From the NCBI GenBank assembly GCA_963811315.1, contig CAWERH010000039.1, positions 4,501-68,500 of the forward strand: 64,000 nt of DNA, written 5' to 3'. The notes beneath the pieces are model-generated. The model was not told where the DNA came from, ran no database searches, and saw only the letters and a program-made list of their open reading frames with translations. The stretch is from an uncultured delta proteobacterium (GTDB lineage Bacteria; Desulfobacterota; Binatia; UBA9968). A program made the translations under genes and the position numbers. Positions 2,968-59,883 of the stretch are shown in pieces (within the stretch, counting starts at the first letter, position 1; every line of letters begins with the position of its first letter).

Positions 2968-3960
2968 ATGACGCTTCGGAGTCGTAAATCCAAGTTTCTT
3001 GTCTGCTTTATTTTGGCTGTTGTTATTCTCACCGGCACCCATACGGCTGCCCTCGCCCAGGACAAAATTCGCGCCGCCTATAGTTCGATCAGCGGGATTT
3101 TTACTCCGGTGTGGATCGCCAGCGATCTGCGGCTCTATCAAAAGTATCAGACCGACGCCGATCTCGTGTACATCGGCGGTTCGGCGGTGGCGGTGAGTGC
3201 GTTGATCGCCGGTGAAATCGATTTTATCTACGGCGGAGCCGATCCGATTATTGCCGGTATTTTGGGTGGCGCGGATCTCACGCTGGCGGGATTCATCTCC
3301 AATAAGACACCGATCAGTCTCTATGTTGGCCCTGGGCTTACCAAAGTCGAAGATCTGAAAGGCAAAACCGTGGCGGTGACCCGGTTGGCTTCGAGCACTG
3401 CCTATATGGCGAAGGTTTGCTTTGGCCAGTATCGCTTGGAGCCGGTGAAGGATATCCCGTTGATTCAATCGGGCGGCTACCCGGAATCGCTGGCGATGCT
3501 GCAAGCCGGACGCGTACAGGGCGCGATGCTATCGCCGCCGTTTACCTATAAAGCCGAGGCTCTTGGCTTCAAACGCATCTGGAACGGCTCCGGCGTGGAG
3601 TATCCGTCTTTCGTCCTGGCGACCCGCAAAACATTCATCCGTGACTCCGCCGATCGAGCACAAAGGGCTTTTAACGCGGTCGCCGAAGGCGTGCACATCT
3701 TCAGAACCGACAAGGAGCGGGCCATTCGCGTCATGGCGAAATACACCAAGGTCAACGACCGAACGATTCTTGAAAATACCTACTTGGATAACAAGGACGT
3801 CTACAGCCCCAACATGCGCCCGACCGCGAGCGGCGTAAAACCGATTCTGGATATTCTGGCAGCGTCCAATCCGAAGGCCGCAGCGGCGAAGCCGGAACAA
3901 TTTTTCGACGTGACCCTGTCACGGCGTTTGGAAGAGAGCGGCGTGATGAAAAAGTTCTAA
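2968..3960 (+). CDS. NMT1/THI5-like (SsuA/TauA-type) periplasmic substrate-binding protein
   Basis: 330 aa with signal peptide and DKIRAAYSSISG...DLKGKTVAV motifs. Member of a large paralog family in this window. Confidence 0.85.
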   Translation: MTLRSRKSKFLVCFILAVVILTGTHTAALAQDKIRAAYSSISGIFTPVWIASDLRLYQKYQTDADLVYIGGSAVAVSALIAGEIDFIYGGADPIIAGILGGADLTLAGFISNKTPISLYVGPGLTKVEDLKGKTVAVTRLASSTAYMAKVCFGQYRLEPVKDIPLIQSGGYPESLAMLQAGRVQGAMLSPPFTYKAEALGFKRIWNGSGVEYPSFVLATRKTFIRDSADRAQRAFNAVAEGVHIFRTDKERAIRVMAKYTKVNDRTILENTYLDNKDVYSPNMRPTASGVKPILDILAASNPKAAAAKPEQFFDVTLSRRLEESGVMKKF

Positions 3961-3965
3961 GCGGT

Positions 3966-5006
3966 TCACGTCATATTGTAAAATCGTTTGGCATTCTCGC
4001 TGAAAACTTTTCGCTTGACCCGTTCCGATAGATCGCCCCTTTCCCAGAATTCGGGGATGTCCTTGGCGAACGCGCCGGCTTCGCGCTCGTGGGGGAAGTC
4101 GGTGGGATACATCAGGTAATCCTCGCCCATCTCGCGCACGACGACATCGAGGGTCTTTTCATCGGTTTCACAGGTAATGTAGATGTTGCCGTTCTTGAAG
4201 TAGTCGCTGGGCTTCTTGCTCAGCGGAAAATGTCTGCGTTTGCGATCGATGTGGAATTTCTCATCCATTCTATCCATCATGTACGGAATCCATCCAGCGC
4301 CGGCTTCGAGGAATCCGATTCTCAGCTTCGGATAAAGGTCGAAGACACCGTCGAGGACGACGCTGGTAAGCTGGATCATCTGCGCGATCGGATGTTCGAG
4401 CGTGTGGATCATCGACATGGTCTGGAGAAAATCGAAACCCAAACCGCGGCTCACCGCCCCGTGCACGGTCAACGGTACGTTCAGATCCTGCGCTTCTTTA
4501 TAAATCGGATGGAAATCCTGATGGCCATAGCCTTTATTCAGCATGGTCACCGCGGGCAAGAGGCCCGCAACCATGCGCTGTTCTTTGACCGCGCGGCGCA
4601 GTTCGGCGGCGGCTTCCGGCGGATTGTGCACCGGCAGCAACGCCACGCCTTTCAATCGGGCGTCGACTTTGCAGTAACGATCGAAGAGCCAGTTGTTATA
4701 CATGCGCGCCACGACGCAGGCCCAATCGGGATCTTGGATCAAGCCCAGGGACAGCCCGGCGGTCGGATAGAGCACCGCGGCGGAGATCTTCGAGCCCTCG
4801 ATGAACTGGATCCAACTATCGGAGGTAACCTTGGTGACCTTGTCGATGCCGCGCACAAAGCCGCGCGGCCAGCCGTCGAGCGAGGGAAAAATTGAAAAAG
4901 TCCCGGTGCGCCGATGGCCTTTATAATCTCCATCAAAGTATTGCTCTAGCTCCGCGTCGGTTTCCAATACGTGGCCGTCCGCATCGATTACAGTGACTCC
5001 ATCCAT
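3966..5006 (-). CDS. amidohydrolase-2 family protein
   Basis: 346 aa, MDGVTVIDADGHVLE... with HxH start and a C-terminal DFPHE acid/His region. Intact ORF. Confidence 0.85.
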   Translation of the reverse strand: MDGVTVIDADGHVLETDAELEQYFDGDYKGHRRTGTFSIFPSLDGWPRGFVRGIDKVTKVTSDSWIQFIEGSKISAAVLYPTAGLSLGLIQDPDWACVVARMYNNWLFDRYCKVDARLKGVALLPVHNPPEAAAELRRAVKEQRMVAGLLPAVTMLNKGYGHQDFHPIYKEAQDLNVPLTVHGAVSRGLGFDFLQTMSMIHTLEHPIAQMIQLTSVVLDGVFDLYPKLRIGFLEAGAGWIPYMMDRMDEKFHIDRKRRHFPLSKKPSDYFKNGNIYITCETDEKTLDVVVREMGEDYLMYPTDFPHEREAGAFAKDIPEFWERGDLSERVKRKVFSENAKRFYNMT

Positions 5007-5205
5007 CTTATGAATCCTCCATCAGCGCGCTTTGGAAAAGCTTTTTCGTTTTGGCTTAGCACCAGCGCGAGAAGGGTGTCAATTCGCCGGATGGTGTTTC
5101 CGATGGGTAGTGACTTATGCGACGTGTGGCATGATCGAAAGTCCGGTTTTGACCGCGCCGCGGCTTTGTATTAAGTATCAGGAAGCCAGGAGGGAACGAG
5201 AGAAG

Positions 5206-5363: not shown

Positions 5364-6452
5364 GTGGGAATTATCGACGCAGACACTCATATCGACGAAA
5401 CGGACGCGACTTGGGAATACATTCAGGAAGACGACTTGCCCTACAAGCCGTCGACGGCTTATCCATCGAATCCGGACCCAAAACTGCCGCCGGCGCGTTA
5501 TTGGGTGATCGACGGCAAGCGTCAGGTGCGCTTCATTCGCAGCGATAAAGATTCGGGCACGACCGTGGCGACCCGCGAGCTGCTGGATGTCAAAGCACGC
5601 CTGAAGCATATGGATGAGTTGGGCACGGACATACAGGTGATTTATCCGACGTTGTTTCTCATGGAAGCGACGGAAAAGCCGGAAATCAATACCGCGATGC
5701 GACGCAGCTATAATCGTTGGTTGGGCGAGCGCTGCGGCGAATCGGGCGGCAGATTGCGTTGGGTGTGCATGCCGCCGCTGCAGAATATGGACGCGACTGT
5801 CGAAGAACTGACCTGGGCTAAAGAGCATGGCGCCTGCGGTGTTTTGAAAAAAGGTGACCGGGAAGTGGGTAAATATCCGGCCGATCCATACTTTGAACGG
5901 CTGTATGCCGAAGCCGAGAAACTCGATATGCCGATCTGTCTGCACACCGGATCCGGGATTCCGGATTTTTCGCCGGCGCGAGAATTCTCCCACGGTCAGT
6001 TCATGCGCACGAAGGCGGCAGTGATCAATGGAGTGCTCGGCCTGGTGCTGCACAAGATCCCCTTAAAGTTCCCCAAGCTGCGCATTGGCTGCATCGAAGC
6101 CGGTTCGATGTGGGCGCCGTTCGTGGCTTACGATTTAAAGCGCCAGGCTTTAAAACAGCAGGGACGTGAGTCGGTAGGGGTTCTCGGTGTGCCGCTGATC
6201 GACATTCCGGCGAACGTCTTCAAAGACAACCGAATCTATGTGACGTGTCAAGTGGACGAAGATTTGCCCTACATCCTCAAAACCATCGGTGAAGATAATT
6301 TGATGGTCGGATCGGATTACACCCACCGCGACCCGTCAATGGAACTGGAGTTCCGCAAGGAATTGGAAGGACGCGCCGACAAAGGCGACATCCCGCAGGC
6401 GTCGGTGCAGAAGATTCTTTACGACAACCCGAAGGCGTTCTATGCGCTATAA
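5364..6452 (+). CDS. amidohydrolase-2 family protein
   Basis: 362 aa, GTG start after SD AAGGAG: VGIIDADTHIDETD...YPTLFL...MVGSDYTHRDP. Intact. Confidence 0.85.
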   Translation: MGIIDADTHIDETDATWEYIQEDDLPYKPSTAYPSNPDPKLPPARYWVIDGKRQVRFIRSDKDSGTTVATRELLDVKARLKHMDELGTDIQVIYPTLFLMEATEKPEINTAMRRSYNRWLGERCGESGGRLRWVCMPPLQNMDATVEELTWAKEHGACGVLKKGDREVGKYPADPYFERLYAEAEKLDMPICLHTGSGIPDFSPAREFSHGQFMRTKAAVINGVLGLVLHKIPLKFPKLRIGCIEAGSMWAPFVAYDLKRQALKQQGRESVGVLGVPLIDIPANVFKDNRIYVTCQVDEDLPYILKTIGEDNLMVGSDYTHRDPSMELEFRKELEGRADKGDIPQASVQKILYDNPKAFYAL

Positions 6453-6522
6453 TCATCTTGTCGCCCGATTGCGGCGAGCTTAACGCCGTGAGCGGTCGTT
6501 AAACTGAAGAAGAGGAGTTTAG

Positions 6523-7074
6523 ATGATCATTCTCAGTCCGGAAGGAAAAGCGCAGACCTCAGGGGCAAAAATCGCGAGCTTGCCGCAGTTCACCGAACTG
6601 CGCGGCAAAGTGGTCGGTTGGCTCGACAACAGCAAGCCCAACGCCGACAAGCTGGCGGAACGGTTTGGCGAGCTTTTAAAAGAAAAATACGGCGTGGCCA
6701 ACATGATTACCAGGCGCAAACTGACCGCGCAGCAAGGCGCGCCGAAACAATATCTCGACGAGCTCGCATCGCAGGCCGACTTTGTCATCTGCGGCCTGGG
6801 TGATTGAGGCTCGTGCACGTCGTGGAGTGTCCACGACTCCCTCGAAATTCAAAAGCGCGGCCGTTTTGCGATCACGCTGATCACCCACGCTTTCGTGGCG
6901 CTGGCAAAATCCGAGAAGGAAGCTTTTGGCGCGCCCGATCACCCGGTGTTGGTCGTGCAGCATCCTATCGGCACGGTCAAAATCGAAGAAGTTAACAAGA
7001 AGGCCGAGGCGGCCTTCGATCAAGCTGGTAAAAATCCTGCTCGACGCCGGAAACGGCGCGGTCAAAGTCGCTAG
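6523..7074 (+). CDS. UGSC-motif selenoprotein (UGSC-family (seleno)protein), copy 1; in-frame UGA at 6805-6807 read as selenocysteine
   Basis: The ORF tool stops at TGA 6805-6807 (..FVICGLGD*). The same frame continues GSCTSWSVHDSLEIQKRGRF... to TAG 7072-7074. The downstream peptide is conserved with paralog 18780-19343. A SECIS-like hairpin sits 11 nt after the UGA. SD AGAGGAG lies 6 nt before the ATG. Confidence 0.7.
6819..6837 (+). other. candidate bacterial SECIS stem-loop GUCGUGG-AGUGU-CCACGAC
   Basis: A perfect 7-bp stem with a 5-nt G-containing loop starts 11 nt 3' of the UGA. The 27 nt tcgtgcacgtcgtggagtgtccacgac are identical to paralog 19071-19097, while flanking synonymous sites have diverged. 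Confidence 0.6.
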
Positions 7075-7134
7075 CCTGGAGGTTGGAGTTTCGGTCTCGA
7101 GTCCGCAGGATCGTCAAGCCGGCCCTTCGAAAGC

Positions 7135-7220
7135 TGTCATGATGAGCGCGAGCGAAGCATCCAGGTTCGCAGTGCCGTTCAGTTAAGAGAAGCCTGGATT
7201 CCTCGTGCTCATGGCAATGA
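7135..7220. repeat. MITE/REP-like imperfect hairpin element (termini GTCAT...ATGAC)
   Basis: tgtcatgatgagcgcgagcgaagcatccagg ... cctggattcctcgtgctcatggcaatgac form an ~85-nt inverted repeat. It is intergenic, between the selenoprotein gene and its partner gene. Confidence 0.55.
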
Positions 7221-7303
7221 CGGAAGGGCGACTTACAGTTGGCACAGTCAGGTTATTCTGGACGAAAGGTGACGGCGGGATTTGAGGGAACGTTTACGCA
7301 AAA

Positions 7304-8357
7304 ATGGCAGAACAACCACTTCAAGCGGAACGATTCGAAATTCCCGACGACCTTTGGGCGGCGCAGGCTTTTTTTGAAGAAAAGGGATGGTCCGATGGTT
7401 TGCCGATCATTCCGCCGACGGAAGAGCGGGTGGCGCAGATGCTCGGCGGCGACGACCCGAAAACCGGACGAGTTGATCGGCGCGGTGCCGCCGCGCTGGG
7501 CGCAGGCGAGCGTCGAGAAGATCGCGATCAATGGCGTCATGGCCGGATGCAAACCGGAGTACATGGCAACCCTGATTGCCGCGGTCGAAGCGATCACCGA
7601 TCCCAAGCTCAATCTTTATGCGTTGCAGGCGACCACGGGCGGACCGGCGGTGATGATCATCATCAACGGCCCGATCCGCCATAAGCTCAACGTCAACGGC
7701 GGGCCCAACGCGTTGGGCGAAGGGTGGCGCGCCAACGCCACCATCGGCCGGTTCGTGCAATTGATCAAACGCAATATCGGCGGCTCCTATCCGGGCACCA
7801 CCTGCAAGGCGACGCTTGGCTGGCCGGGAAAATATTCGATCTGCGTCGGCGAAAATGAAGAGGCGAGTCCGTGGGAACCGCTGCACGTGGAGCGCGGTTT
7901 CAAAGCCGAGCAAAGCACGGTGACGGCGATCAGCGCCGATGCTTCAATACGAGCGTCGGATTTGGACAGCTCGAAAGCGGAAGGCGTGCTGATCAATTTC
8001 GCGCAGAAAATGGACGGCCCGTCCGGGCCGGAAGCGATCATGGTCATTTGCCCGGAGCATGCCAAGATCATTGCCGATGACGGCTTCAGTAAGAAAGACG
8101 TGCAGAAATTTATCTGGGAGCGCGCCGCGTACCGGATGAAGGATTTGCCGGACGAGACCTTCGCGCAACGGGTCAAACGGCGCAGCGATCTGAAGCTCAC
8201 CCGCGACAGCATCATTCCGGTGACCGATAGGCCGGAGGACATACTCGTCATCGTCGCCGGCGGTGACGGCTCGCAGTCGCAGTACATCCACGTCTGGGGT
8301 CAGAGCACGCCGGAAGGCGGGTCGACGCGCAGCGTCACGAAACTCATACGGGATTAA
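7304..8357 (+). CDS. conserved hypothetical protein genetically linked to the UGSC selenoprotein (partner, copy 1); frameshift at the A4 run 7460-7463
   Basis: MAEQPLQAERFEIPDDLW..GLPIIPPTEERV (ORF 7304) continues in ORF 7239-8357 as ..ELIGAVPPRWAQASVEKIAINGVMAGCKPEY...GWPGKYSICVGENEE... It is paralogous to 19885-20967 along its whole length. Confidence 0.7.
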
Positions 8358-8405: not shown

Positions 8406-8418
8406 AACGCATTGTCCG

Positions 8419-9440
8419 ATGTCTTACCCTCGCCCGCTTGCGGGAGAGGGAAGGGTGAGGGCGTGCATCGACGCGTTATTAATTATCAGCCTGCTTTTGA
8501 GCTTTGTTGTCCTGGTAGCGAAATTTGCTTCGCCGCCGACAAGCTGCGCATCAGTTACTCGGGCACGACGACGAGCAACGCGCTTCTTTGGGTGACCAAG
8601 GAAGCGAAACTTTTTGACAAGAACGGCATCGACGCGGAAGTGCTTTATCTGGCGGCGTCGCTCGGCCAGACCGCGTTGATCGCGGGCGAGACCCAGTTCG
8701 CGGTCTACACGGGACTGCTGATGACGCCAACCCGCCTGCAAGGCGCCGACGTTACGATGATCGCCGGGTTTCTAAATTATCTGGTCTCGCGCTTGGTCGT
8801 GCGTCCGGACATCAAGACCGCCGCGGATTTAAGAGGCAAACGTTTGGCCGTGTCGCGTTTCGGCACGGCGTCGGATTTCGGTACCCGCTTGATGGTGTCC
8901 AAGCTCGGTTTGAATCCCGACACCGACGTCACGATCTTGCAGATCGGCGACACGCCCACCCGGGTCGCCGCACTGATGGCCAAGAGCGTCGACGGCGCGA
9001 TCTTCGATCCGCCCGATCACAAAAAGGCCATCGAAAACGGCGGCCGCATCATGATGAACTTGGAGGAAACCGCGATTCCGTATCAGCATGCCGGTTTGAT
9101 GACGACGCGAAAGTACATCGCCGCCCGGCCGGACATCGTTCGGCGGGTGGTCAAAGCGATTGTCGAGGGCGCCGCGGTGGTGCGCAAAGATCCGGAGACC
9201 ACCAAGCGGGCGCTGTCGATCCGCATGCGCATCAAAGATCCCAAAGACCTCGAAGAAACCTATCAGCAGCTGCGCGGCTTCACGCAAGCCAAACCCTATC
9301 CAAGCCTGGAAGGTTTCAAAGCGATCTTGAACGATTTGTCCAAGCGCGTGCCCGCGGCGAAAAATGCCGATCCGAAAGATTTTGCCGATCTCCGGTTCGT
9401 CGAAGAACTGGATAAGTCGGGTTATATCGATGGACTCTAA
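8419..9440 (+). CDS. NMT1/SsuA-like periplasmic substrate-binding protein; frameshift near 8545
   Basis: The signal-peptide frame MSYPRPLAGEGRVRACIDALLIISLLLSFVVLVAKFA shifts into AADKLRISYSGTTTSNALLWV... The gene is a tandem paralog of 9494-10471. Confidence 0.75.
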
Positions 9441-9470
9441 AGGCGTGAGGCTTGAGGCGGGAGGCTAGAG
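9441..9470. repeat. 7-mer tandem array AGGCGTG AGGCTTG AGGCGGG AGGCTAG
   Basis: It follows the TAA stop at 9438-9440 directly. Confidence 0.4.
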
Positions 9471-9493
9471 TCGTGTGGACAAAGACGTATTTT

Positions 9494-10471
9494 ATGCTTG
9501 AAAAGTTAACGCCGATTCTCACTGTAATTCTGGCTGCAGTTTTGTTGCTGCGCTCCGCATCGGCCGGCGCCGCCGATAAGATTCGTATCGGTTACTCCGG
9601 CGCGACGGTCAGCAACGCGATGCTCTGGGTGACCGACGAAGGCAGACTGTTTCAAAAAAACGGCATCGATCCGCAAATCCTCTATTTGCAAACGACGCTC
9701 GGACAGACGGCGATGATCGCCGGTGAAATCGACATGTGCGTCTACTCCGGCAGTCTGCTCTCGGCGGCGCGCTTGCAGGGAGTCGACGTGGTGATGGTCG
9801 TAAGTTTTCTCAACAAGCCGCTCTATCGGCTGGTGGTTCGCCCCGAGATTCGCACGGTCGCCGATCTCAAGGGAAAACGGCTCGGCATCACGCGCTTCGG
9901 CACTGTCACCGATTCGATGTCCCGGCTCCTGATCAACAAACTCGGACTCGATGCCGAGAAAGACGTTTCTTATATTCAGGTCGGTGATGTGCCAATCCTG
10001 TTAGCTTCCTTGTCGTCAGGCAAGATTATCGACGGCGCGATCATTCAGCCGCCTTATTATTTGAAGGCGGTGGCCACCGGCATGCGCGTTTTGGTGAATA
10101 TGCAAGAGATGGACATCCCGGTCCAACAAACCGGGCTCAATACCACGCAGAAGTTCATCGCGAAAAATCCCGATGTCGTGCGGCGGGTAGTCAAGTCGGT
10201 GATCGAAGGGATCCATCTGATGCGCACCAATCCCGCCGTGGCCAAGCGGGCGCTCTCCAGGCGCATGCAGATCAAAGATGAAAAAGAGATCGAAGACACC
10301 TATCAATTGCTGAAGAGTTTCGTGCAGATCAAGCCGTATCCGACTCTGGAAGGCTTCAAAACCATTTTCGAAGATCTGGCGAAAAGAGTTCCGGCGGCAA
10401 AGAACGCCAATCCCAAGGAATTTGTCGACACCCGGTTTATCGAAGAGTTGGATAAGCTCGGGGTTTATTGA
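9494..10471 (+). CDS. NMT1/SsuA-like periplasmic substrate-binding protein
   Basis: MLEKLTPILTVILAAVLLLRSASAGAADKIRIGYSG... Intact. The ATG at 9494 is preferred over the ORF-tool start at 9452 because it gives a proper signal peptide. Confidence 0.85.
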   Translation: MLEKLTPILTVILAAVLLLRSASAGAADKIRIGYSGATVSNAMLWVTDEGRLFQKNGIDPQILYLQTTLGQTAMIAGEIDMCVYSGSLLSAARLQGVDVVMVVSFLNKPLYRLVVRPEIRTVADLKGKRLGITRFGTVTDSMSRLLINKLGLDAEKDVSYIQVGDVPILLASLSSGKIIDGAIIQPPYYLKAVATGMRVLVNMQEMDIPVQQTGLNTTQKFIAKNPDVVRRVVKSVIEGIHLMRTNPAVAKRALSRRMQIKDEKEIEDTYQLLKSFVQIKPYPTLEGFKTIFEDLAKRVPAAKNANPKEFVDTRFIEELDKLGVY

Positions 10472-10524
10472 CGCATTGGAGCGCCAGTGATACGCGATGC
10501 TTGACGGATAATTGGGGAGGAACG

Positions 10525-11520
10525 ATGTTGAGAATACAAAGATCGCTGATGGGTGTCGCTTTGATTGTGGCTTTCGCCACTCCTGCCCTGGGGCAAAGCC
10601 TGCCCAAAGTCCGCGCCGCCTACACATCCATAAGCATCCAATTCGATGCGGTTTACATCATGAAGGAGCTCAACCTGCCGCGGAAATACGGCTTGGATGC
10701 CGAAATTCTTTTTGTGCCGGTGAGTTCGCGCGCCGTGCAGGCGGCGCTCGCGGGCGAGATTCAATTTATCACCAGTGGCGGCGTGGCCAATATCAATGCG
10801 AACGTCACAGGCGCCGATTTCACCGGGCTTACCGCGACACTCAATACTTTTGTCTTCAAGGTCTTCGCGAGCCCGGAGATCAAAAAGCCTGAGATGTTAA
10901 AGGGCAAGAAGGTCGGCATTTCCCGTCTCGGCGGCGCCAGCGATTTTTCTATTCGCTATGCGCTAAATTACTGGGGTCTCGTCCCCGACAAAGACGTTGC
11001 CATCATCCAGGTGGGCGGCGAACCGGAGTCGCTTCTGGCGCTACAAAACAAAGCCGTGGACGCGGCGATCTTATCGGAACCGTTTGCAAGCCTGGCAAAG
11101 CGCAATGGCTCAGTGCTGCTGGCTGATTTAAGTCAGCTCGGCGTGCCTTACACGATGCACGGCTTCGGGGTGCGCAAGAGTTACATTCAGGCCAATCGGG
11201 ACGTTGTCGTCCGATTCATGAAAGCCTATCTCGAAGGCATCTATGTTTTCAAAACCAACAAGGACATTGCGTTGAACGTCCTGAAAAAATATACCCGGCA
11301 GGACGATCTTTCCCTCGTACAAGTGGCCTATGAGGAAATGTCCCAGAAGCTTATCCGCAGAGTCCCGTACCCCAACCGCGAAGGGATTCAGACGATCATA
11401 GATCAGCTCGCCAAGACCCGGCCGGAAATGAAAAATCTCAACCCCGGCGACTTCATCGATCCGTCGATCTTGAAAGAAATCGAGGACAGCGGGTTTATTA
11501 AAAAGTTGTATGGAAATTAG
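10525..11520 (+). CDS. NMT1/SsuA-like periplasmic substrate-binding protein
   Basis: ATG at 10525 after SD GGAGG: MLRIQRSLMGVALIVAFATPALGQSLPKVRAAYTS... Intact. Confidence 0.85.
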   Translation: MLRIQRSLMGVALIVAFATPALGQSLPKVRAAYTSISIQFDAVYIMKELNLPRKYGLDAEILFVPVSSRAVQAALAGEIQFITSGGVANINANVTGADFTGLTATLNTFVFKVFASPEIKKPEMLKGKKVGISRLGGASDFSIRYALNYWGLVPDKDVAIIQVGGEPESLLALQNKAVDAAILSEPFASLAKRNGSVLLADLSQLGVPYTMHGFGVRKSYIQANRDVVVRFMKAYLEGIYVFKTNKDIALNVLKKYTRQDDLSLVQVAYEEMSQKLIRRVPYPNREGIQTIIDQLAKTRPEMKNLNPGDFIDPSILKEIEDSGFIKKLYGN

Positions 11521-11616
11521 CGGTCGATGTCTCCATGCCTGATCCAGGATCTAATCCTGAATCTGGCCCAAACAAACTAAATCTTTGACTTACTCTGACT
11601 GTGAGATTCGGCGGCA

Positions 11617-12597
11617 TTGATGTCAAATCTAAAACTTACTCTTGCGTGTTGGGACTACGATCGTACCCGGCCGCTCATCGATGGTCGGGTGAAAGCTGAA
11701 GGAATCGATCTCGACATAAAAATCATGCGACCCCGCGAAATGTTTCCTCGGATGCTGGAAAAAAAAGAGTTTGAAATTTCCGAGCTATCGCTTGGTTCAT
11801 TATGTCACCCTCAAAGGCCGCGGCAGCTGTCCGTTCGTGGCGGTGCCCGTGGCGTTATCCAAGATCTTCCGCCACTCGTGTATTTACGTGCGGACGGATG
11901 CGGGCATCAGGAGCCCCCAGGATCTGCGGGGCAAGCGGGTGGGAACTACTCAGCTCGGGTCCACCGGAATTATTTTCATGAACGGCATGATGCAACACGA
12001 GTACGGCGTAGGTCTGGAAGATATCCACTGGTTTATTGGCGGATTGGATTCCCCGACCACGAGACCGGTGATTCCTCTGAATCTGCCGGATAAAATTAAG
12101 GTTGACTTTCTTCCTTCGGATCAAACTTTGGAGGGGATGTTAGAAGCCGGACAACTCGACGCTTTGTTCGCGCTGTACATTCCCTCGATCTTTCAGAAAG
12201 GGCTCGCCGCCGCATAGCGCGCCTGTTTCCGAACTATTATGAAGTCGAACAGGATTATTATCGTCGCACACAGATCTTTCCGATCATGCACACCGTCGTG
12301 GTGCGCGACGATGTTCATCGTGAGCATCCATGGGTGGCTGAAAGTATGTACAAGGCTTTCTGCGAGGCTCGGGATCTAGCCGTCGACGGACTTTACGACA
12401 CGGACGCGCTACGACTCTCGCTTCCTTGGCTCATCAACCATCTTGAGGAGACCTGGAAAGTCTTAGGGAAGGATTTCTGGGCCTACGGTTTGGAGCCCAA
12501 CCGCCCGGCTTTAGAGGCGATCGGCCAGTATGTCTACGAGCAGGGTTTCTCGCCCCGCGCAGTCAGCCCCGACGAGCTGTTCGCGCTGAATGTGTGA
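11617..12597 (+). CDS. cytoplasmic SBP-fold protein resembling 4,5-dihydroxyphthalate decarboxylase (PhtD-like); two frameshifts (near 11800 and 12205)
   Basis: Three ORFs (11617-12093, 11771-12217, 12286-12597) concatenate into MSNLKLTLACWDYDRTRPLIDGRVKAEGIDL...SYVTLKGRGSCPF...MHTVVVRDDVHREHPW... There is no signal peptide. Family assignment is from memory of the LTLACWDYDRTR N-terminal signature. Confidence 0.5.
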
Positions 12598-13808: not shown

Positions 13809-14881
13809 ATGAAAAAAAGTTTTTCGCCGCCGTGATTTCACTTCTGGTTTGCACATGGGCCGTCGCCGCGAGGCCAACGTCCGCGCAGGAGACCGCTGGC
13901 CAGATTTTGGCGAAGCTTGAAAAACTTTCCACCGAGAACCGGCAGAAAGTCCTGGTCGAGCGCGCAAGGAATGAGAAAGAAGTCACTTTCTATAGCTCCC
14001 TTCAGACCACCGATGCAGAACCCTACGTGAAGGCGTTCAACAAGCGCTATCCTTTTATCAAGGTCAATATCTACCGTGTCTCCGGGCAGAAACAGGTAAT
14101 CATGATCCAATCGGAATTTAACGCCGGCAGGCATGCCTTCGACATTACCAATGCCTCGGCTGCTCAAGCCTTTGGCATCAAGAAGACCGGCGCGTTGGAC
14201 CCGTATCAAAGTCCCCAGCGGCAATACTTTTCCACCGCGCATAAAGACAAGGAAGGATACTTCACCCCGACTTATATCGTCCCGGTGGTGCTTGGCTACA
14301 ACACCAATATGGTCAAGCGCAACGAATTGCCCAAACGCTATGAAGACCTGCTGGAGTCCAGATGGAAGAGTAATATGATCTTGGACATCGAGGAGTTTCC
14401 CTGGTTTGCGGTGTTACTCAAACACTATGGCCGCGAAAAGGGTTTGGACTACATGAGACGGCTGGCCAAACAGGATATCCAGATGGGGCGGGGACGCACC
14501 ACCCAGGCGCAGCTCATCAGCGCGGGCGAGCGGGCCGTCGGCATAGCGCTCAACAGCTCTTCCGTGCTCGACTTCAAAACTCGCGGCGCGCCAATCGACT
14601 GGACCATTCTCGATCCGTATTACGCCAAACCCAATATGCTGATGTTTGCGCGCCACGCGCCTCACCCGCATGCGGCGGCGCTATTGATCGACTGGACGCT
14701 CTCCGAGGAAGGGCAGTCGCTACTGGCGAATTCGGGTTACGTGGTAGCGCGCAAGGGCGTGAAACAAAGCACCCCGGCATTATTGGAAAAGGAGAGCTTT
14801 CTCGCCGATCCCGACTTTATTGGCCCGATCTTGGAAGAGACCGGCAGAGACTTTCGCAGCGTATTCACAGGCGGACGCTAG
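13809..14881 (+). CDS. extracellular solute-binding protein family 1 (Fe3+/ABC-type periplasmic binding protein); frameshift in the A7 run 13812-13818
   Basis: Adding one A gives MKKKFFAAVISLLVCTWAVAARPTSAQE... (signal peptide) followed by ..YPFIKVNIYR...LPKRYEDLL... Paralogous to 34193-35246, 35443-36451 and 42190-43242. Confidence 0.75.
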
Positions 14882-19864: not shown

Positions 19865-19884
19865 ATAATCTTTCAACGTGTGAA

Positions 19885-26535: not shown

Positions 26536-26540
26536 TTTGG

Positions 26541-45821: not shown

Positions 45822-46793
45822 TCACTTGACCCAGAGATTGTTTAGGTCGCCGATGTTCGGCAATAGGCCGAGCGATATCCCGGACTGCAAAATTTTATTT
45901 TGCGATTGAAAAAAGGCCTCGCCCCATTTGTCGGCGAAGTTGGCTTTATTTTGCTTGATGCCGGCGGCGATTTCCTCCGGGGTGCTTAGGTTAAATAGCT
46001 CTTTGGATTTCGATTTGAAAAAATCTTCGTCCTGGCCGGCCTTGATCATCTGCACCGCGTCCGCATAGGCGCTCCTGATGGCTTTGACGATTTGCGGCTG
46101 TTTGTCGATGGTTTCCTTGAGCATGCCGACCGTCGACTTGAGCGGCGGCGCGCCGAAGATCTGCTCGAGCTCGATGTCGAAGTCGAGAAGCACGCGATAT
46201 CTGCCGGACATCACGAGCCGCGTTGTGTGCGGTTCGAACATGTTGATCGCTTCAACTTCGCCGCGCTCCAGCAACGCAATCAACGCGCCGGTTTCGGCGG
46301 GAACGTTTTGGAAGTCTTTTTCGATGTCGAGCTTTCTTTCCTTGGCGATCACCGCGGAAAAAAAGTAGGCGCCGGTGACCCGCGCGAAGTTGCCGATCTT
46401 CTTGCCTTTGAGATCACCGAGGCTTTTATACGGCGCGTCTTTTTTAATCAGCCACGAATTGCCGGACCAGATCTGCGGCGCGATCAAGCGTATGTCGGCG
46501 CCGCTCTTGACCAGGTTGACCGCCGTGCTGGGCTGCATGGCGCTGGCTATGGTGCGGCCGAGCTTGACCGCATTGGCCGCTTCGGTGAAGTCCATCATCA
46601 TGTTGGTGATCTTGAGGCCGTACTTGGTATCGAGTCCTTTGTTCTCAATCAGCGCAGCGATGTAACCGGATTGACCGGAGGCGCTGGTGGCAATGTTGAT
46701 GGGTTGCAAGGCTTGGCCGGCTTGGGCCGTGCCGCATAGTCCGGCGGCGGCAAAAAACCCACTGATTAGCCCGAGCAAAGTTCTCATCTTCAT
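45822..46793 (-). CDS. ABC transporter substrate-binding protein (NitT/TauT/SsuA family)
   Basis: 323 aa with signal peptide MKMRTLLGLISGFFAAAGLCGTAQA. Its ATG overlaps the stop of the ATPase gene (ATGA). Confidence 0.85.
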   Translation of the reverse strand: MKMRTLLGLISGFFAAAGLCGTAQAGQALQPINIATSASGQSGYIAALIENKGLDTKYGLKITNMMMDFTEAANAVKLGRTIASAMQPSTAVNLVKSGADIRLIAPQIWSGNSWLIKKDAPYKSLGDLKGKKIGNFARVTGAYFFSAVIAKERKLDIEKDFQNVPAETGALIALLERGEVEAINMFEPHTTRLVMSGRYRVLLDFDIELEQIFGAPPLKSTVGMLKETIDKQPQIVKAIRSAYADAVQMIKAGQDEDFFKSKSKELFNLSTPEEIAAGIKQNKANFADKWGEAFFQSQNKILQSGISLGLLPNIGDLNNLWVK

Positions 46794-47551
46794 GACTCTC
46801 CGTCCTCCTTCAACGTGACCTTGGTCTCCAACTCTGCGGCGAAATTATAAATCTCCGGGCCCCAATGCCGCGGCGTCGGCAGCGGATTGGCCACGTAGGC
46901 GTCGAGCGTCGCCGGCCGGCGCGTCAGCGTGACGACGAAGTCGCTCATATACGCGGCTTCCGCGAGATTGTGCGTGACGAACAACACGGTGCGATGCAAT
47001 TGTTCACACAAGCGCCGCGTGGTTTGACGCAGCTGGCGCGCGGTCAGCTCGTCGACACTGGCGAAGGGCTCGTCCATCAACACCAGATCCGATTCGACGG
47101 CCAAAGCGCGAGCCAAACCGACGCGCTGGCGCTGCCCGCCGGAGAGATAAAGCGGATATTGATTGATGTATTCGTCGAGCCCGACCAATTGCAGGTAGTG
47201 CTCCACGCGCTTCTTCCATTGCGCCTGCGGCACGTCGGCGCCTTTGAGCGCCAGACACAAGTTCTCGCCAATGGTTTTCCATGGCAACAAGCGCGGGCTT
47301 TGAAATACGTAGCCGATCAATGGGCGCTGCTGCACCTGGCCGTTGTTTGAATAGCGCAACTCACCGCGGTCGAGCGCTTCGAGCCCGACGATGGAGTTGA
47401 GCAGCGTCGATTTGCCGCAGCCCGACGGACCGATCAATACGGTAACCGAACCCGCGCGCGCTTCGAACGATAGCCGATCGATGACCTTGAACGGCTGTCC
47501 ATCTTCGCGGCGGAACCATTTTTCCGCGTCTTTGACGACGAGTTCGGCCAC
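46790..47551 (-). CDS. ABC transporter ATP-binding protein (NitT/TauT family)
   Basis: Walker A GPSGCGKST, signature LSGGQRQRV and Walker B LVLMDEPF. Confidence 0.9.
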   Translation of the reverse strand: MAELVVKDAEKWFRREDGQPFKVIDRLSFEARAGSVTVLIGPSGCGKSTLLNSIVGLEALDRGELRYSNNGQVQQRPLIGYVFQSPRLLPWKTIGENLCLALKGADVPQAQWKKRVEHYLQLVGLDEYINQYPLYLSGGQRQRVGLARALAVESDLVLMDEPFASVDELTARQLRQTTRRLCEQLHRTVLFVTHNLAEAAYMSDFVVTLTRRPATLDAYVANPLPTPRHWGPEIYNFAAELETKVTLKEDGES

Positions 47552-48415
47552 TCAGCGTCTCCACACATCGATCTTCGGCCGCCACGCGGTGAGCCGGCGT
47601 TCGGCGAAGTTGATGATGCCGTATTCGATGACGATCATCGCGACGACGAAAGTAAGCGTCCAGGCGATGACCCCTTCCATGTTGAAGACTTGATAGGATT
47701 TCATGACCTGATAACCGACGCCGTTGCTGGTGCCGAACATTTCGACAACTACGACGACTTTCCAGGCGAGTCCGAGACCGTAGCGGGTGGCGGCGAAAAT
47801 ATTGGGCACGAGCTGGGGCAGGATCACCTGCGAAATCTTCATCCATTTGGTGAAGTGAAACACATGGCTCATGTCCATCAGCTCTTTGTCGAGGGACTTT
47901 ACGCCGGCCCAGATATTGATGACCAGCATCGGAAAGATGGTCACGGTGACGGCGAAGTACGGCGAGAATTCGTTGATGCCGAACAGCATCACCGCGATCA
48001 GCGCCCACATGAGCCCCGGGATCGTCAAGCCGAGCACGACGAGAGGCTGAAAAAATCGTTCGCCCATGACCACGGTGCCCATGTAGATCCCGACACCGAT
48101 GCTGAAAAACATGGCGATCACCGAGCCGACAAAAACCCGTCGCAGGCTCTGAACCATGTGAAAGAAAAACGTGCCGTCGGTAACCAGTCGAATCGCTTCA
48201 TTGACGGTGCTGGCTGGGCTAGGCAACAAACGCGGATAGATCAGATAGAGCAGCCACCAAATTGCGCCGACGCTCGTCACCGCGAGCAAGGGCGGGAGGC
48301 CGCGCAGCGCGAGCTCATAGAGGAAGGATCCGCCATGTCCCGGAAATTCGTCGGCGTGATTGATGCCCGAAGGCTGTCCGGTCAGCGCCGCTTGATGATG
48401 ATGATCCAACGCCAC
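47552..48415 (-). CDS. ABC transporter permease (BPD_transp_1, SsuC/TauC-like)
   Basis: Six predicted TM helices. It directly abuts the ATPase start, and the three genes together form the only complete transporter operon in the window. Confidence 0.8.
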   Translation of the reverse strand: MALDHHHQAALTGQPSGINHADEFPGHGGSFLYELALRGLPPLLAVTSVGAIWWLLYLIYPRLLPSPASTVNEAIRLVTDGTFFFHMVQSLRRVFVGSVIAMFFSIGVGIYMGTVVMGERFFQPLVVLGLTIPGLMWALIAVMLFGINEFSPYFAVTVTIFPMLVINIWAGVKSLDKELMDMSHVFHFTKWMKISQVILPQLVPNIFAATRYGLGLAWKVVVVVEMFGTSNGVGYQVMKSYQVFNMEGVIAWTLTFVVAMIVIEYGIINFAERRLTAWRPKIDVWRR

Positions 48416-51318: not shown

Positions 51319-52452
51319 TTACATTCCCGTCATTCCGTAATAGGTTGCGCAGTTGTCCCAGAGAATCTTTCGCTTGTCCTCGTCGGTGATTGGCAGTTGC
51401 AAGAAGCGCTCGACCGCTCTCGGATATTTCGTATCGACATGGGGAAAGTCCGTGGAGAAGACCAAGCGCTCGTTGCCGCAGAAATCGATCGCGTATTTCA
51501 CCGGATCTTCGTCGCATTCCACCGAGGCATAGCATTGCCGTTTGAAATAGTAACTTGGCGGGTTTTTGAGCTGCGGCGCCCACTGGTCGCCGTAAAGCTC
51601 CCAATGTTCATCGAGACGCCACATGAGAAAGGGCAGCCAGCCGCAGTTGCCTTCGAGAAACGCCACCCGCAGTTTCGGATGACGGTCTAAGATTCCGCCG
51701 CCGCAGAAGCTTCCGACCGCAAGCATTTGTTCCACGGGATGGGAAAAGGTATGGCGCAGCATGAAATCGTAACCGAATTGCTCGCCGACCTGGCGCGCCG
51801 CCGAGTTGTTGGACTCATGGAAGCCGAGCGGCACTCCGAGATCTTCGAGCGCGGACCAGAGCGGCTCATAGTACGGCTCGTGCCAGTTGTGGCCGTTGAC
51901 GATGTTGGCGCGCAGAAAGATCGCGCGAAAACCCAACTGTTCGACGCAGCGGCGCGTCTCGGCGATCGCATCGTCGATGTTGAAGGGCGATACCATGCCG
52001 GCGCCGATGAGCTTGCGCGGATCCGCTTGGCAGAATTCATAGAGCCAGTCGTTGTAGGCGCGCGCCAGCGCGGCGGCGAATTCGCCGTCCAAATCCGGGA
52101 TACTGAGCACGTTCAGCCCGCGGCTCGGATAGAGAATCGCCAGATCGATTCCTTCCTCCGCCATTGCGTCGAGCTGCACTTGCGGCGACCAGCCGCGCTC
52201 ATTGTGAGTCTTAAAAAGTTTCTGGTTTTTGTGAAAAATATGTCCCGGCGGGGGAAGTGTTCCCGGAGGCGGGTCGACGGGGCGGCCCCAGGCTCTGCCG
52301 TCGGGACCGATCATGCGAAGGTCGCGCACATGGTCGGTCGTGCCGATGGGCGCGAGATGTTTAAATCTCTTGTCGATGTAGCGCGGCCAAAGATCGGCCG
52401 GCTCGAGGATGTGCATGTCGCTGTCGAGAACTTTGAAACCGTTGTTGGCCAT
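51319..52452 (-). CDS. amidohydrolase-2 family protein
   Basis: MANNGFKVLDSDMHILEPADLW...LGFHESNNS...VFSTDFPHVD.. ATG 52450-52452 after SD GGAGG. Confidence 0.85.
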   Translation of the reverse strand: MANNGFKVLDSDMHILEPADLWPRYIDKRFKHLAPIGTTDHVRDLRMIGPDGRAWGRPVDPPPGTLPPPGHIFHKNQKLFKTHNERGWSPQVQLDAMAEEGIDLAILYPSRGLNVLSIPDLDGEFAAALARAYNDWLYEFCQADPRKLIGAGMVSPFNIDDAIAETRRCVEQLGFRAIFLRANIVNGHNWHEPYYEPLWSALEDLGVPLGFHESNNSAARQVGEQFGYDFMLRHTFSHPVEQMLAVGSFCGGGILDRHPKLRVAFLEGNCGWLPFLMWRLDEHWELYGDQWAPQLKNPPSYYFKRQCYASVECDEDPVKYAIDFCGNERLVFSTDFPHVDTKYPRAVERFLQLPITDEDKRKILWDNCATYYGMTGM

Positions 52453-52487
52453 AGATCCTCCTACCCGAATAAAAAACCCCATGCATG

Positions 52488-52562
52488 TCATGCTGAGCAA
52501 AGCGAAGCATCTCGCATTCCTGAATGTTTAGGTTGAGATTCTTCGGCTGCGCCTCAGAATGA
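52488..52562. repeat. MITE/REP-like hairpin, full copy (GTCATGCTGAGCAAAGCGAAGCATCTCGC...GAGATTCTTCGGCTGCGCCTCAGAATGAC)
   Basis: ~75-nt imperfect inverted repeat, intergenic. Confidence 0.55.
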
Positions 52563-57812: not shown

Positions 57813-57818
57813 TAAAAT

Positions 57819-58880
57819 TCAGCCAAGTCCGTAAAACTTGCGCGGATTTGACTCGAGAATCTTCTCGATGACCGCCGGGGCGATGCGGCGATCGTTGCGC
57901 AGCAGACGGATCGCGTTGAGCTCGGATGAGGGATCGTGGTGACCGTAGTCGGTGCCGATCATGAGAGCATTTTCACCGGCATGGCTCAGGACGTAAGGGA
58001 GATCGTCGGTATTCTCGCACGCCACCCACATGTTGTTGGCGGCGAGCGGATCGGCGGGAAACGGCCTGCCCTGACGGCGGAAGCGATCGGCCAGATCGTT
58101 CAGAACATAGGGCACCCATTGGGCGCTGACCTCGACGAAGCCCCAACGGACCTTCGGGAATTTTTTCGGCAACTCTTTCTCGATCAGCGTGTGACAGGCG
58201 CCGACGACCGTGAGTTTGAACTTGGTAAATGTCGTGTCCTCGGCGAAAAAATCGTGGTGGAGGAAACTGCCGTTGGCGGAATGGACGCAGACGGGCAGAT
58301 CAAGATCGCCGCACATCTCCCAGAGCGGATAAAAGTAGGGAGATCCGAGCGCCTGCTCGCACTCCAACCCGCGCATGAAAAGCCCGCAGGCGCCGTGGTT
58401 CTTGGCCCACTCCAACTCATCGCGCACCGCTGCCGGAGTTTTTTCCAGAAGCCGCAGCGGCGGCTTCACCACCCAGCGCAACCGGCCCCGTCCTTGGCGC
58501 CAGAGATCGCCCATCCAGCGATTGTACGATCTGCAGAGAGCGCGTTCGCGCGCGGCGTCCTGCACGATCGGGCGGAGAAACAGCGTCGGATAGAGCACCT
58601 GAGTCTCGATGCCAAGCTCGTCCATGTGCGCGAGCCGGGATTCGACGCTGAGCATTTCGCGCGATTCTTTCGAGGTGTCGGTGCCGACGTTGCGGTCTTT
58701 GCCGTGCGCGCGTCCTTCGATCACCCAAAAGTCGCGCACAGCAGTGCCCTCGTTGCTGCGCAGCTCCGCGCCGAAGCTCTGGGTCATCAGTTGCGGCGCA
58801 AAGCGGCGCTCATCGTCGTCAAGATAACTCCAAGTCTGCACCGTCTCGATCACGTGCGCGTCAGCGTCAATCGCTCCCAT
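57819..58880 (-). CDS. amidohydrolase-2 family protein
   Basis: MGAIDADAHVIETVQTW...YPTLFL..PVCVHSANG..IGTDYGHHDPS..FYGLG. 353 aa, intact. Confidence 0.85.
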   Translation of the reverse strand: MGAIDADAHVIETVQTWSYLDDDERRFAPQLMTQSFGAELRSNEGTAVRDFWVIEGRAHGKDRNVGTDTSKESREMLSVESRLAHMDELGIETQVLYPTLFLRPIVQDAARERALCRSYNRWMGDLWRQGRGRLRWVVKPPLRLLEKTPAAVRDELEWAKNHGACGLFMRGLECEQALGSPYFYPLWEMCGDLDLPVCVHSANGSFLHHDFFAEDTTFTKFKLTVVGACHTLIEKELPKKFPKVRWGFVEVSAQWVPYVLNDLADRFRRQGRPFPADPLAANNMWVACENTDDLPYVLSHAGENALMIGTDYGHHDPSSELNAIRLLRNDRRIAPAVIEKILESNPRKFYGLG

Positions 58881-58893
58881 CGGTTTCTCCTTA

Positions 58894-59883
58894 CTAAAGG
58901 CCCTTGGCGGCCTCTCGCACCACCGATGTGTCGATAAGTGCCGCCGGCGCGACGTTCTTTGCCTCGGGAGTACTCCTCGCTAGATCTTCAAGGATCGTCT
59001 TTATTCCATCCTCGTACGGGGTTGGAATATCGGGAAGGATTTTTATTTGGTGCTCCAGCGCCGTCTTTACCGCTTCGTGATCGGTTGTGCGCACATATTT
59101 GGCGAGTACTCTTTCGGCAAACGGCCGGTCGTTTTTGATCCGTTTGATCGCCAGCATGGAGGCTCTCATAAATCTGACCACCACTGAGCGATTCTTTTCC
59201 AAAAAGCTCCGCGTCGTGCCATGTCCCGTGAGCAAGTAGGGAACTTTGAGTTCTTCCAAATCGAGCAGGATGTGCATGCCGGCTTTCTTCACTACCGGTG
59301 TGATGATCGGCGAGAAAACCGACAGAGAAATATCTCCTCGTTGCATGGCAAGCAGTCTGTCGCCTTCTAGCCCAATTTGAATCATCGTCACGTCGGTCTT
59401 CTTTAATCCTAGATGCTTTAAGGCATACTCGGCAACGAAGTCGGAGGTCGAGCCGAAGCGGCTGACGGCCAATTTTTTTCCTTTTATATCTTCGGGCTTT
59501 TGGATCTCAGGCTTCGCTCCCAGGGTGTAGGCCATCACGTTCTGCAGTCGGCTGATGACGACCACGTCTTTATTTCCTTGCAGGTACGCATAAGCGGCGG
59601 ATGTGCCGCCGATCAAGCCGATGGGACTCTGGCCGGTAACCAGCAGCTGCACCGCGAGCGAGCCGCCACGAATCAAAAGCATGCGCACGTCCAAGCCTTG
59701 CTCGTCGAAATAGCCGGCATCCTTCGCGACCCAGAGGCTCAGCATATTCGCGTTGGTGGCGGAGTAGGTCACGGGCAGTACGGTCTTTTCCTGCGCCAAA
59801 GATTTCGAGTCGCCGCAAAAGAGAAAAATAACGGCGAGCACAAGCATCGAAGCGTTTTTCATGAGACGACTCTCCCGCGCCAT
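58894..59883 (-). CDS. NMT1/SsuA-like periplasmic substrate-binding protein
   Basis: 329 aa with signal peptide. It lies 14 nt upstream (transcriptionally) of amidohydrolase 57819-58880 on the same strand. Confidence 0.85.
   Translation of the reverse strand: MARESRLMKNASMLVLAVIFLFCGDSKSLAQEKTVLPVTYSATNANMLSLWVAKDAGYFDEQGLDVRMLLIRGGSLAVQLLVTGQSPIGLIGGTSAAYAYLQGNKDVVVISRLQNVMAYTLGAKPEIQKPEDIKGKKLAVSRFGSTSDFVAEYALKHLGLKKTDVTMIQIGLEGDRLLAMQRGDISLSVFSPIITPVVKKAGMHILLDLEELKVPYLLTGHGTTRSFLEKNRSVVVRFMRASMLAIKRIKNDRPFAERVLAKYVRTTDHEAVKTALEHQIKILPDIPTPYEDGIKTILEDLARSTPEAKNVAPAALIDTSVVREAAKGL

Follow-up and report, generated by a model that had tools for sequence, protein, structure and literature searches.

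A stretch of 64,000 nucleotides (the window; contig CAWERH010000039.1 of assembly GCA_963811315.1, positions 4,501 to 68,500, from an uncultured bacterium of the class Binatia) encodes 15 substrate-binding proteins (SBPs) of the NMT1 type and a single permease. Of the window's roughly 60 genes, about one in four belongs to this one family, a clustering that is far beyond chance. We suggest that each SBP and the enzymes encoded next to it form a specificity module, and that few ATP-binding cassette (ABC) translocators of the NitT/TauT type are shared among these modules. We give this reading a probability of roughly 0.55.

The first-pass annotation, which was made from the letters alone, counted 17 NMT1/SsuA-type SBPs. 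There are indeed 17 NMT1-like loci, but the number of functional SBPs is lower: 15 of the loci are genes for exported NitT/TauT-type SBPs, one is a 5' remnant of such a gene and one encodes an enzyme, a decarboxylase homologue. Thirteen open reading frames (ORFs), which is all 13 of those scanned, lie above the Pfam gathering cutoff for NMT1 or NMT1_2. Two further SBP copies, each split by one frameshift, were found by blastp and with a profile made from the SBP copies in the window. The same profile, searched against all six frames, revealed two extra NMT1-like loci, the remnant and the enzyme. A collapsed repeat or a duplication made during assembly was considered as the origin of the SBP array and rejected, since pairwise identity among the paralogs is just 23-36%. 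Four pairs are closer than this: 22057/23099 (73-75%), 8412/9452 (57%), 33122/40809 (46%) and 20987-21999/29122 (about 45-50%). The first two of them had been called tandem duplicates at first pass, and they are real ones.

All these proteins have one potential membrane partner in the window, the permease/ATPase pair at 46790-48415 on the minus strand. It had been annotated as the only such pair, and this was borne out. The permease (47552..48415; Pfam BPD_transp_1) is the sole ORF with at least three transmembrane segments in a hydropathy scan of the six frames, and no second ABC ATPase besides 46790..47551 (Pfam ABC_tran) was detected in the window by a profile search of the six frames. The models nearest to the permease in NCBIfam are SaoP, TauC, SsuC and NtrB, all of them below their equivalog cutoffs. 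Since it is of the NitT/TauT type, the permease belongs to the family that is expected for NMT1-type SBPs. Its operon ends with a cognate SBP gene (45822..46793, minus strand; Pfam), and the order permease-ATPase-SBP is conserved across Binatia. Just upstream of the operon there is another SBP gene, 50354-51294. In L016-L019 (handles of this form denote loci in other DNA) one strand carries an Amidohydro_2 gene, the orthologue of 50354-51294, a gene for a 164-aa protein, the permease, the ATPase and the SBP, and the arrangement in the window is the same. With one SBP gene directly upstream of the operon and 45822 at its downstream end, at least two SBPs are found at one translocator, and one of them comes from the large paralog group. 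The remaining 13 of the 15 SBPs have no membrane component nearby. A small exported protein that is rich in Gln and of low complexity (49860-50336, minus strand; 158-166 aa, with a signal peptide) is encoded between this upstream SBP gene and the operon, a position that is conserved in all relatives (L016-L019).

The same imbalance is found in related DNA. Thirteen related loci (172 kb) with 36 full-length SBP ORFs contain no NitT/TauT permease. A metagenome scan yielded 51 close loci (365 kb; at least 71% identity to the SBP at 58894) in which there is neither a NitT/TauT permease nor an ABC ATPase; these loci hold 63 full-length NMT1 SBP ORFs, 12 family-1 SBPs, seven TctC proteins and 15 amidohydrolases. 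Combined, the related Binatia contigs amount to 537 kb and 99 full-length NMT1 SBP ORFs; neither a NitT/TauT permease nor an importer-type ABC ATPase was found in them. The single ABC-ATPase-like match in the 537 kb is weak (E 6e-10) and concerns a 612-aa ORF in L004. Eight distant homologous loci from other organisms (24-31% identity) served as a positive control for the detection of permeases. They contain seven SBPs, eight permease ORFs and five ATPases, and in five of the eight the ATPase, permease and SBP genes are adjacent. As to other membrane proteins, those encoded near the arrays in relatives are ETR1_N histidine kinases and proteins of the major facilitator superfamily, rhomboid, P-type ATPase, resistance-nodulation-division pump and ion channel types. 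No component of an SBP-dependent transporter is among them, and no membrane gene of a tripartite ATP-independent periplasmic (TRAP) transporter or of a tripartite tricarboxylate transporter (TTT) is present in any locus examined. In L002, L003 and L005 the array is followed by membrane proteins of about 500 aa, which were considered as the missing transporter. They were rejected as such, being ETR1_N (ethylene-receptor-like) histidine kinases, which are encoded directly after the array (L002:12672-14048, L003:3426-4952, L005:11537-13045) and do not occur in the window.

The SBPs themselves look like working proteins. Most copies in the window, and all orthologues examined, have a hydrophobic signal peptide (judged by eye) that ends in AxA, is followed by Q(D/E)K and has no lipobox. 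On the evidence of these predicted signals the SBPs are shown to be Sec-exported to the periplasm. An AlphaFold2 model of one paralog, 22057 (pLDDT 91), has the two-lobed fold of class II periplasmic binding proteins. It resembles 3qsl (from Bordetella), TauA, ThiY, SsuA, PqqT and NrtA/CmpA with TM-scores of 0.63-0.72, at sequence identities not above 19%; in Foldseek the E-values against 3qsl, 6ssy, 3ix1 and 2x26 are 1e-17 to 1e-19 (TM-scores 0.64-0.72). Three SBPs were scanned with models of narrower families. They are not SsuA equivalogs (SsuA_fam 64-93 bits, cutoff 163.5; two orphan copies score 81-93 and the cognate 45822 scores 64) and they are not TauA equivalogs (33-52 bits, cutoffs 304-490). 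Models for TAXI-type SBPs of TRAP transporters are not reached either (NMT1_3 21.8 bits against a cutoff of 27; TRAP_TAXI 16-26 bits against 84). Only three columns are invariant across the SBP set, all of them glycines, and an alignment of 13 paralogs contains no conserved stretch of 7-10 residues. Each paralog tested has orthologues of 75-93% identity in many Binatia contigs. Relative to these orthologues, the ratio of nonsynonymous to synonymous substitution rates (dN/dS) is 0.07-0.15 for the SBPs, 0.06-0.10 for the permease and the ATPase, and 0.04-0.06 for the neighbouring enzymes. By these sequence measures the SBP genes are maintained, specialised, anciently diverged and under purifying selection, and not decayed.

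How might so many binding proteins be used? Under our proposal, each SBP would bind a different small organic acid, probably an aromatic or other carboxylate. It would then dock on one of few shared NitT/TauT ABC translocators, each consisting of a permease dimer and an ATPase dimer, for which 46790-48415 may serve as the example. The imported compound would be processed by the enzymes that are co-encoded, and presumably co-regulated, with that SBP. SBP and enzyme would be a plug-in specificity module and the translocator a shared chassis. The gene arrangement is tight. Where SBP genes adjoin one another or an enzyme gene, the gaps range from -4 to 24 nt and suggest co-transcription; they include the two short gaps between SBP and amidohydrolase on the same strand reported at first pass, which measure 13 nt (58880 to 58894) and 24 nt (51294 to 51319). 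A block with the order UGSC, UnkE, SBP, SBP, (SBP), enoyl-CoA hydratase, acyl-CoA dehydrogenase (ACAD), two CoA-transferases, SBP, SBP can be recognised in each of the 13 related loci, either completely or partially. The first-pass annotation had offered two ideas about the role of these SBPs that bear on this point. One, that they are capture proteins which feed shared membrane components, fits the signal peptides, the match of the SBP family to that of the permease, the purifying selection and the two SBPs at the translocator. The other, that they are chaperones for the adjacent enzymes, fails: the SBPs are periplasmic, and the amidohydrolase_2 proteins, which lack a signal peptide, are cytoplasmic.

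Several points count against the proposal of shared translocators. SBP 45822 is an outlier subtype. The 14 apparent orphans share just 19-26% identity with this permease-co-operonic SBP, so that a docking surface common to them all would be hypothetical. SBP genes served as anchors for sampling related DNA, which biases the samples to SBP-rich regions; the excess of SBPs over permeases is a local one (15:1 in 64 kb), seen besides in these SBP-anchored samples. Neighbourhoods of the orthologues of 58894 vary between relatives, and the pairing of SBP and enzyme is therefore not fixed for every paralog. Finally, the likely class of substrate has been read solely from the families of neighbouring enzymes.

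If, instead, the SBPs are parts of ordinary dispersed ABC systems, each will have its own permease and ATPase elsewhere in the genome, and the window will be nothing more than an SBP-rich stretch. One complete system is present in the window itself, and L064 (60% identity) has a permease-ATPase pair with SBPs on both sides. Yet in the 537 kb surveyed, with its 99 full-length SBP ORFs, neither a permease nor an importer-type ATPase was found. Moreover, an SBP gene is normally located in the operon of its membrane components, and the distant homologues in the five control loci do adjoin their permeases. We consider dispersed systems unlikely.

The orphan SBPs could also be periplasmic sensors, as had likewise been suggested at first pass, and report to histidine kinases, chemoreceptors or other regulators whether a ligand is bound. 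Orphan TTT SBPs have been proposed to act in this way, and the BctDECBA system has been shown to do so (PMC5994714); in L002, L003 and L005 a histidine kinase gene is located behind the array. That kinase, however, has an ETR1-type N-terminal domain which is embedded in the membrane, and it is missing from the remaining loci of the set as well as from the window. No kinase, chemoreceptor or DNA-binding regulator is among the scanned ORFs of the window, and the tight linkage of the SBP genes is with catabolic enzymes. We consider a sensory role unlikely.

A further reading is partnership with another class of membrane protein encoded elsewhere, TRAP-TAXI or TTT rather than NitT/TauT ABC. It could draw on the weak, sub-threshold TAXI similarity mentioned above, on the presence of a TctC gene in the window, and on Rhodoplanes, where TTT SBPs are encoded beside ABC and TRAP components (PMC5994714). 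The TAXI scores are far under their cutoffs, though, and are exceeded by those of the SsuA-family model; in structure, the nearest proteins are SBPs of ABC systems; a member of the large paralog group is located immediately upstream of the NitT/TauT operon; and TRAP and TTT membrane genes are missing from the loci examined. All this makes such a partnership quite improbable. That some of the exported proteins are periplasmic enzymes and not binding proteins is very improbable: Thi5 and DszB, which like 4,5-dihydroxyphthalate decarboxylase are enzymes built on the NMT1/SBP fold, are among the structural neighbours of the 22057 model and the window does encode one enzyme of this fold (11605-12594), but the known enzymes of the fold are, to our knowledge, cytoplasmic and without signal peptides whereas the window copies are exported, the top structural matches are transport SBPs, and the three glycines leave no conserved candidate for a catalytic residue.

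The closest known phenomenon is the expansion of the Bug (TctC) family, to which the SBPs had been likened at first pass. The likeness fits what we see: across the Binatia relatives there are orphan SBPs with no permease nearby, and distant homologues are found in ordinary operons. Bordetella has 79-181 Bug SBPs against at most four membrane systems, and in Rhodoplanes nine of 434 SBPs are in full TTT operons (PMC5994714). It is mainly for this TTT-associated family, and in Proteobacteria, that expansions of orphan SBPs have been documented, and there is continuing debate on what they are for (PMC5994714). In both cases there are many paralogous periplasmic SBPs with few or no adjacent membrane components, dispersed among metabolic genes, and in both the proposed explanations are shared membrane components or sensing. 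The differences are equally clear. The proteins described here are of the NMT1/SsuA type and not TctC (PF03401), of which 767-1525 is the sole example; the importer would be a primary ABC system and not a secondary TTT carrier; the lineage is Binatia and not Proteobacteria; and our comparison covers 64 kb plus SBP-anchored loci, not whole genomes. The Rhodoplanes expansion is recent and lineage-specific, whereas the window paralogs are old, as their 23-36% identity indicates, and individually conserved across the class.

The closest precedent for the mechanism is found in ABC importers that are served by several SBPs of one family with distinct specificities. HisJ and ArgT work with HisQMP, and AmiA, AliA and AliB work with AmiCDEF. 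In Pseudomonas aeruginosa, DppA1-A5 work with DppBCDF (PMC4206461, PMC12728205). The likeness to such systems is in the two SBPs of one family that flank a single permease-ATPase pair. In those importers the SBPs number two to five and are fairly similar to one another, while here at least 15 are encoded in 64 kb with 19-36% identity; in addition, most of the SBPs in the window are encoded with catabolic enzymes and away from the transporter, and sharing would be an inference. A third comparison is with the canonical NitT/TauT systems TauABC, SsuABC, ThiXYZ and NrtABCD/CmpABCD and the phthalate transporters of TC 3.A.1.16/17. The SBP fold, the Pfam family and the permease family are the same, and 45822-48415 is a standard example of this type. 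In contrast to the canonical systems, the scanned SBPs are under the SsuA and TauA cutoffs, solved structures are at most 19% identical in sequence, and for 13 of 15 the membrane component is not nearby.

Our search of the literature found no description of an expansion of NitT/TauT or NMT1 SBPs, nor of the transporter content of Binatia; a phylum-wide genomic survey makes no mention of transporters (PMC8262859). It is possible, and we say so tentatively, that Binatia, an abundant uncultured lineage of soil, arrived on its own at a Bug-like strategy that uses an ABC chassis, with dozens to hundreds of old, individually conserved SBPs, each accompanied by its own cytoplasmic catabolic enzymes and all delivering to a handful of shared translocators. 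If correct, cassettes of SBP plus enzyme would be the unit by which substrate range evolves in organisms that scavenge diverse organic acids of plant and soil-organic-matter origin. If an expansion of this kind exists in another transporter class and in an unrelated, environmentally abundant lineage, the strategy would be shown to be convergent. There would also be a second system in which the sharing of few translocators by many SBPs can be tested. For function assignment in Binatia, the tight pairing of SBPs with particular enzymes (amidohydrolases of the aromatic-acid decarboxylase type, CoA-transferases, the dihydroxyphthalate-decarboxylase homologue) offers hypotheses on ligand and enzyme that come in pairs.

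The individual SBP genes are as follows, beginning with those on the plus strand. SBP 2968..3960 (Pfam NMT1_2/NMT1; signal peptide ending in AALA before QDK) is divergent from a split amidohydrolase gene, 1533-2889, as the first pass had it, and convergent with a second one, 3966-5006. A run of three follows the first UGSC-UnkE pair. It consists of 8412..9440 (Pfam NMT1 1.4e-20), whose garbled N-terminus probably results from an indel, its tandem paralog 9452..10471 (Pfam; signal peptide), and 10468..11520 (Pfam; signal peptide), the ORF of which overlaps the preceding gene by 4 nt. A further run starts with 20987-21349/21340-21999, a gene with one frameshift near 21340 that was detected by blastp and profile and has an intact orthologue of 346 aa at L002:8903-9943. 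The next gene is 22057..23058 (Pfam; AlphaFold2 model), with orthologues of 75-93% identity in metagenome-assembled genomes (MAGs) of Binatia and a dN/dS of 0.07-0.12, and its tandem paralog is 23099..24079 (Pfam; pairwise identity). SBP 29122..30186 (Pfam; orthologues with signal peptides) is downstream of two CoA-transferase III genes. Then come 30966..31853 (Pfam), whose C-terminal part is shifted into other frames and reaches about 31980 according to the alignment tail and hidden Markov model pieces, 32021..33016 (Pfam; signal peptide) and 33122..34120 (Pfam; 46% identity to 40809). The last one on this strand, 40809..41858 (Pfam; signal peptide), overlaps by about 70 nt the 5' end of a divergent DUF6282 gene. 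This DUF6282 gene (39538-40878, minus strand) is complete, and its pairing with the SBP is kept in L009 and L015; another DUF6282 gene, 3-380 (minus strand), is cut by the window edge.

On the minus strand, besides 45822, there are two SBP genes. One is the frameshift-split 50863-51294/50354-50968 (blastp, profile), which has amidohydrolase 51319 on one side and the permease operon on the other; in short-read relatives the gene is unbroken (315-321 aa). The other, 58894..59883 (Pfam; 51 close loci), is 13 nt upstream of amidohydrolase 57819-58880. The remnant, about 18340..18704 on the same strand, was recognised by profile hits; it lies upstream of amidohydrolase 17018-18064 and still encodes a signal peptide and some 80 aa. 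The orthologue at L008:3549-4580 is intact, and there the pair of SBP and amidohydrolase is preserved, while in L005 the gap that matches its position is 570 nt, too short for an SBP gene. This comparison shows that individual SBPs have been gained and lost within Binatia. When Rfam was searched for riboswitches, for instance an NMT1-motif/xanthine riboswitch ahead of the SBP genes, none of its families reached the gathering score.

The 17th NMT1-like locus, 11605..12594 on the plus strand (Pfam NMT1 24.8 bits), has two frameshifts in the assembly. Its corrected product aligns with the solved enzyme PDB 9jp7, 4,5-dihydroxyphthalate decarboxylase, over the full length (E 3.2e-71, residues 1-324 against 21-339). 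Because of this match and the missing signal peptide we classify it as a cytoplasmic enzyme of the SBP fold and not as an SBP; the activity is assigned by homology and is therefore putative. The homologue hints at catabolism of a phthalate-like aromatic acid, and next to it, inside the SBP array, is a gene for an alpha/beta hydrolase (12670-13521).

SBPs of other families were annotated at first pass as four of family 1 and one of the TctC type, and Pfam and profile searches agree. The family-1 members are 13832..14881 (plus strand; Pfam SBP_bac_6/1), which has no partner permease nearby and just weak PhnS2-like matches in NCBIfam; 34193..35113 (minus strand; Pfam); 35717..36451 (plus strand; profile search, Pfam), whose N-terminal part is missing, the ORF covering profile positions 68-317 of 357; and the frameshift-split 42248..43242 (plus strand; blastp, profile search), which is intact with 349 aa in L015. 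Beside the TctC/Bug-type gene, 767..1525 (minus strand; Pfam TctC), there is no gene for TctA or TctB in the window.

Among the neighbouring enzymes, amidohydrolase_2 proteins are the most frequent. Their seven genes are 1533..2889 (minus strand; frameshift-split; blastp, profile search), 3966..5006 (minus strand; cytoplasmic by its N-terminus and PDB relatives), 5364..6452 (plus strand; cytoplasmic by its N-terminus), 17018..18064 (minus strand; Pfam), 51319..52500 (minus strand; Pfam, PDB relatives), which is 24 nt upstream of SBP 50354-51294, 57819..58880 (minus strand; paralog cluster and window-built profile; N-terminus MGAIDADAH), which is 13 nt downstream of SBP 58894, and 60087..60963 (plus strand; Pfam), which is split and divergent from SBP 58894. 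None of the seven has a signal peptide, and they start with a metal-binding motif (MGIIDADTH and similar). They are 22-55% identical to one another, a divergence as deep as that of the SBPs. Relatives of solved structure include PtmU3 and unnamed amidohydrolase-2 entries, followed by the decarboxylases of 5-carboxyvanillate (LigW), gamma-resorcylate and 2,3-dihydroxybenzoate, and by ACMSD. Genes for an enoyl-CoA hydratase, an ACAD with two frameshifts and two CoA-transferases III (24409..29171, plus strand) are located between SBP genes and are syntenic across Binatia. Other neighbours encode a luciferase-like monooxygenase, enzymes like 3-hydroxyisobutyrate dehydrogenase, and a glutathione S-transferase. 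From these enzyme families we infer that the substrates may be aromatic and other carboxylic acids. A thiolase-C-like protein and an OB-fold protein of the ChsH2 type (36578-38181, plus strand) are encoded beside a split CoA-transferase III gene (38253-39415), and this module resembles those for the degradation of steroid or terpenoid side chains.

A word of warning is needed on the sequence itself. The window is part of a Candidatus Binatia genome in an error-prone long-read assembly. It has about 57% G+C and is dominated by a few paralogous families, as all-against-all blastp clustering of ORFs and scans of Pfam and NCBIfam indicate. Close homologues of SBP 22057-23058, of the permease and of protein 19885-20967 have source names such as 'Candidatus Binatia bacterium', with a few from Chloroflexota, Terriglobales and Verrucomicrobiia. 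The nearest genomic loci are from MAGs labelled Binatia or 'delta proteobacterium', several of which have long contigs and isolate names starting with MFD. At least 16 frame breaks are present in the 64 kb, among them 25789 and about 26060 (both in the ACAD gene), 21340, 38930, 42650, 50900 and 62700. They affect the ACAD gene (twice), a bifunctional penicillin-binding protein (transglycosylase and transpeptidase), a CoA-transferase, two SBPs, two amidohydrolases and others. Pseudogenisation, or decay of the genome, was considered for the split genes and rejected in favour of long-read indel errors, for four reasons. L014 and L015, whose DNA is 94-97% identical to the window, differ from it by one single-base indel per 200-250 nt, genes included. 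The broken genes are not the same between assemblies: a luciferase-like gene is split in L014, while in L015 the DUF6282 and ATPase genes are cut and one ORF joins an amidohydrolase to an SBP. All of these genes are intact in the short-read relatives L017-L019. The twice-frameshifted ACAD still has 92-94% protein identity to its intact orthologue, the DNA being 78% identical. The only likely true loss among the broken genes is the truncated SBP at about 18340-18704. For practical purposes, then, the many split genes of the window should be taken as assembly errors rather than gene decay, and gene calls in such an indel-rich sequence need frameshift-aware handling.

Two of the SBP runs are headed by a pair of genes that is of interest in its own right. 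The first pair, 6520..8357 (plus strand), is directly upstream of the run 8412-11520 and the second, 18780..20967 (plus strand), directly upstream of the run 20987-24079. Each consists of a gene for a UGSC selenoprotein (about 6520-7080 and 18780-19340; Pfam UGSC E 1e-40 for the 18780 copy) and a gene for a protein that we call UnkE (7239-8357, frameshifted, and 19885-20967). In-frame TGA codons are found at 6805-6807 and 19065-19067 within the motif GLG[AD]-U-GSCTSW. About 13 nt after each TGA there is a hairpin, ACGTCGTGG-AGTGT-CCACGAC, nearly the same in both genes, that resembles a bacterial selenocysteine insertion sequence (SECIS) element. UnkE has about 355 aa, more than 7,500 homologues and an invariant G-C inside the conserved motif AxNAVMAGC. 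It has no sequence match in Pfam, NCBIfam or the PDB, and its AlphaFold2 model (pLDDT 89) matches no fold in the PDB (best TM-score 0.27). The two UnkE ORFs were considered as a 'second subtype' of SBP and rejected; they have no signal peptide and no SBP fold, and belong to a separate family that is paired with UGSC. The UnkE gene is always directly downstream of the UGSC gene (window, L002-L013 and L020-L022), Chloroflexota included. The pair is kept without SBPs in Chloroflexota and others, and in Binatia it heads SBP arrays. UGSC and UnkE may be an unrecognised selenoprotein-dependent enzyme pair. In L021 and L022 a Pyr_redox_2 (pyridine nucleotide-disulphide oxidoreductase) gene is located upstream of the pair.

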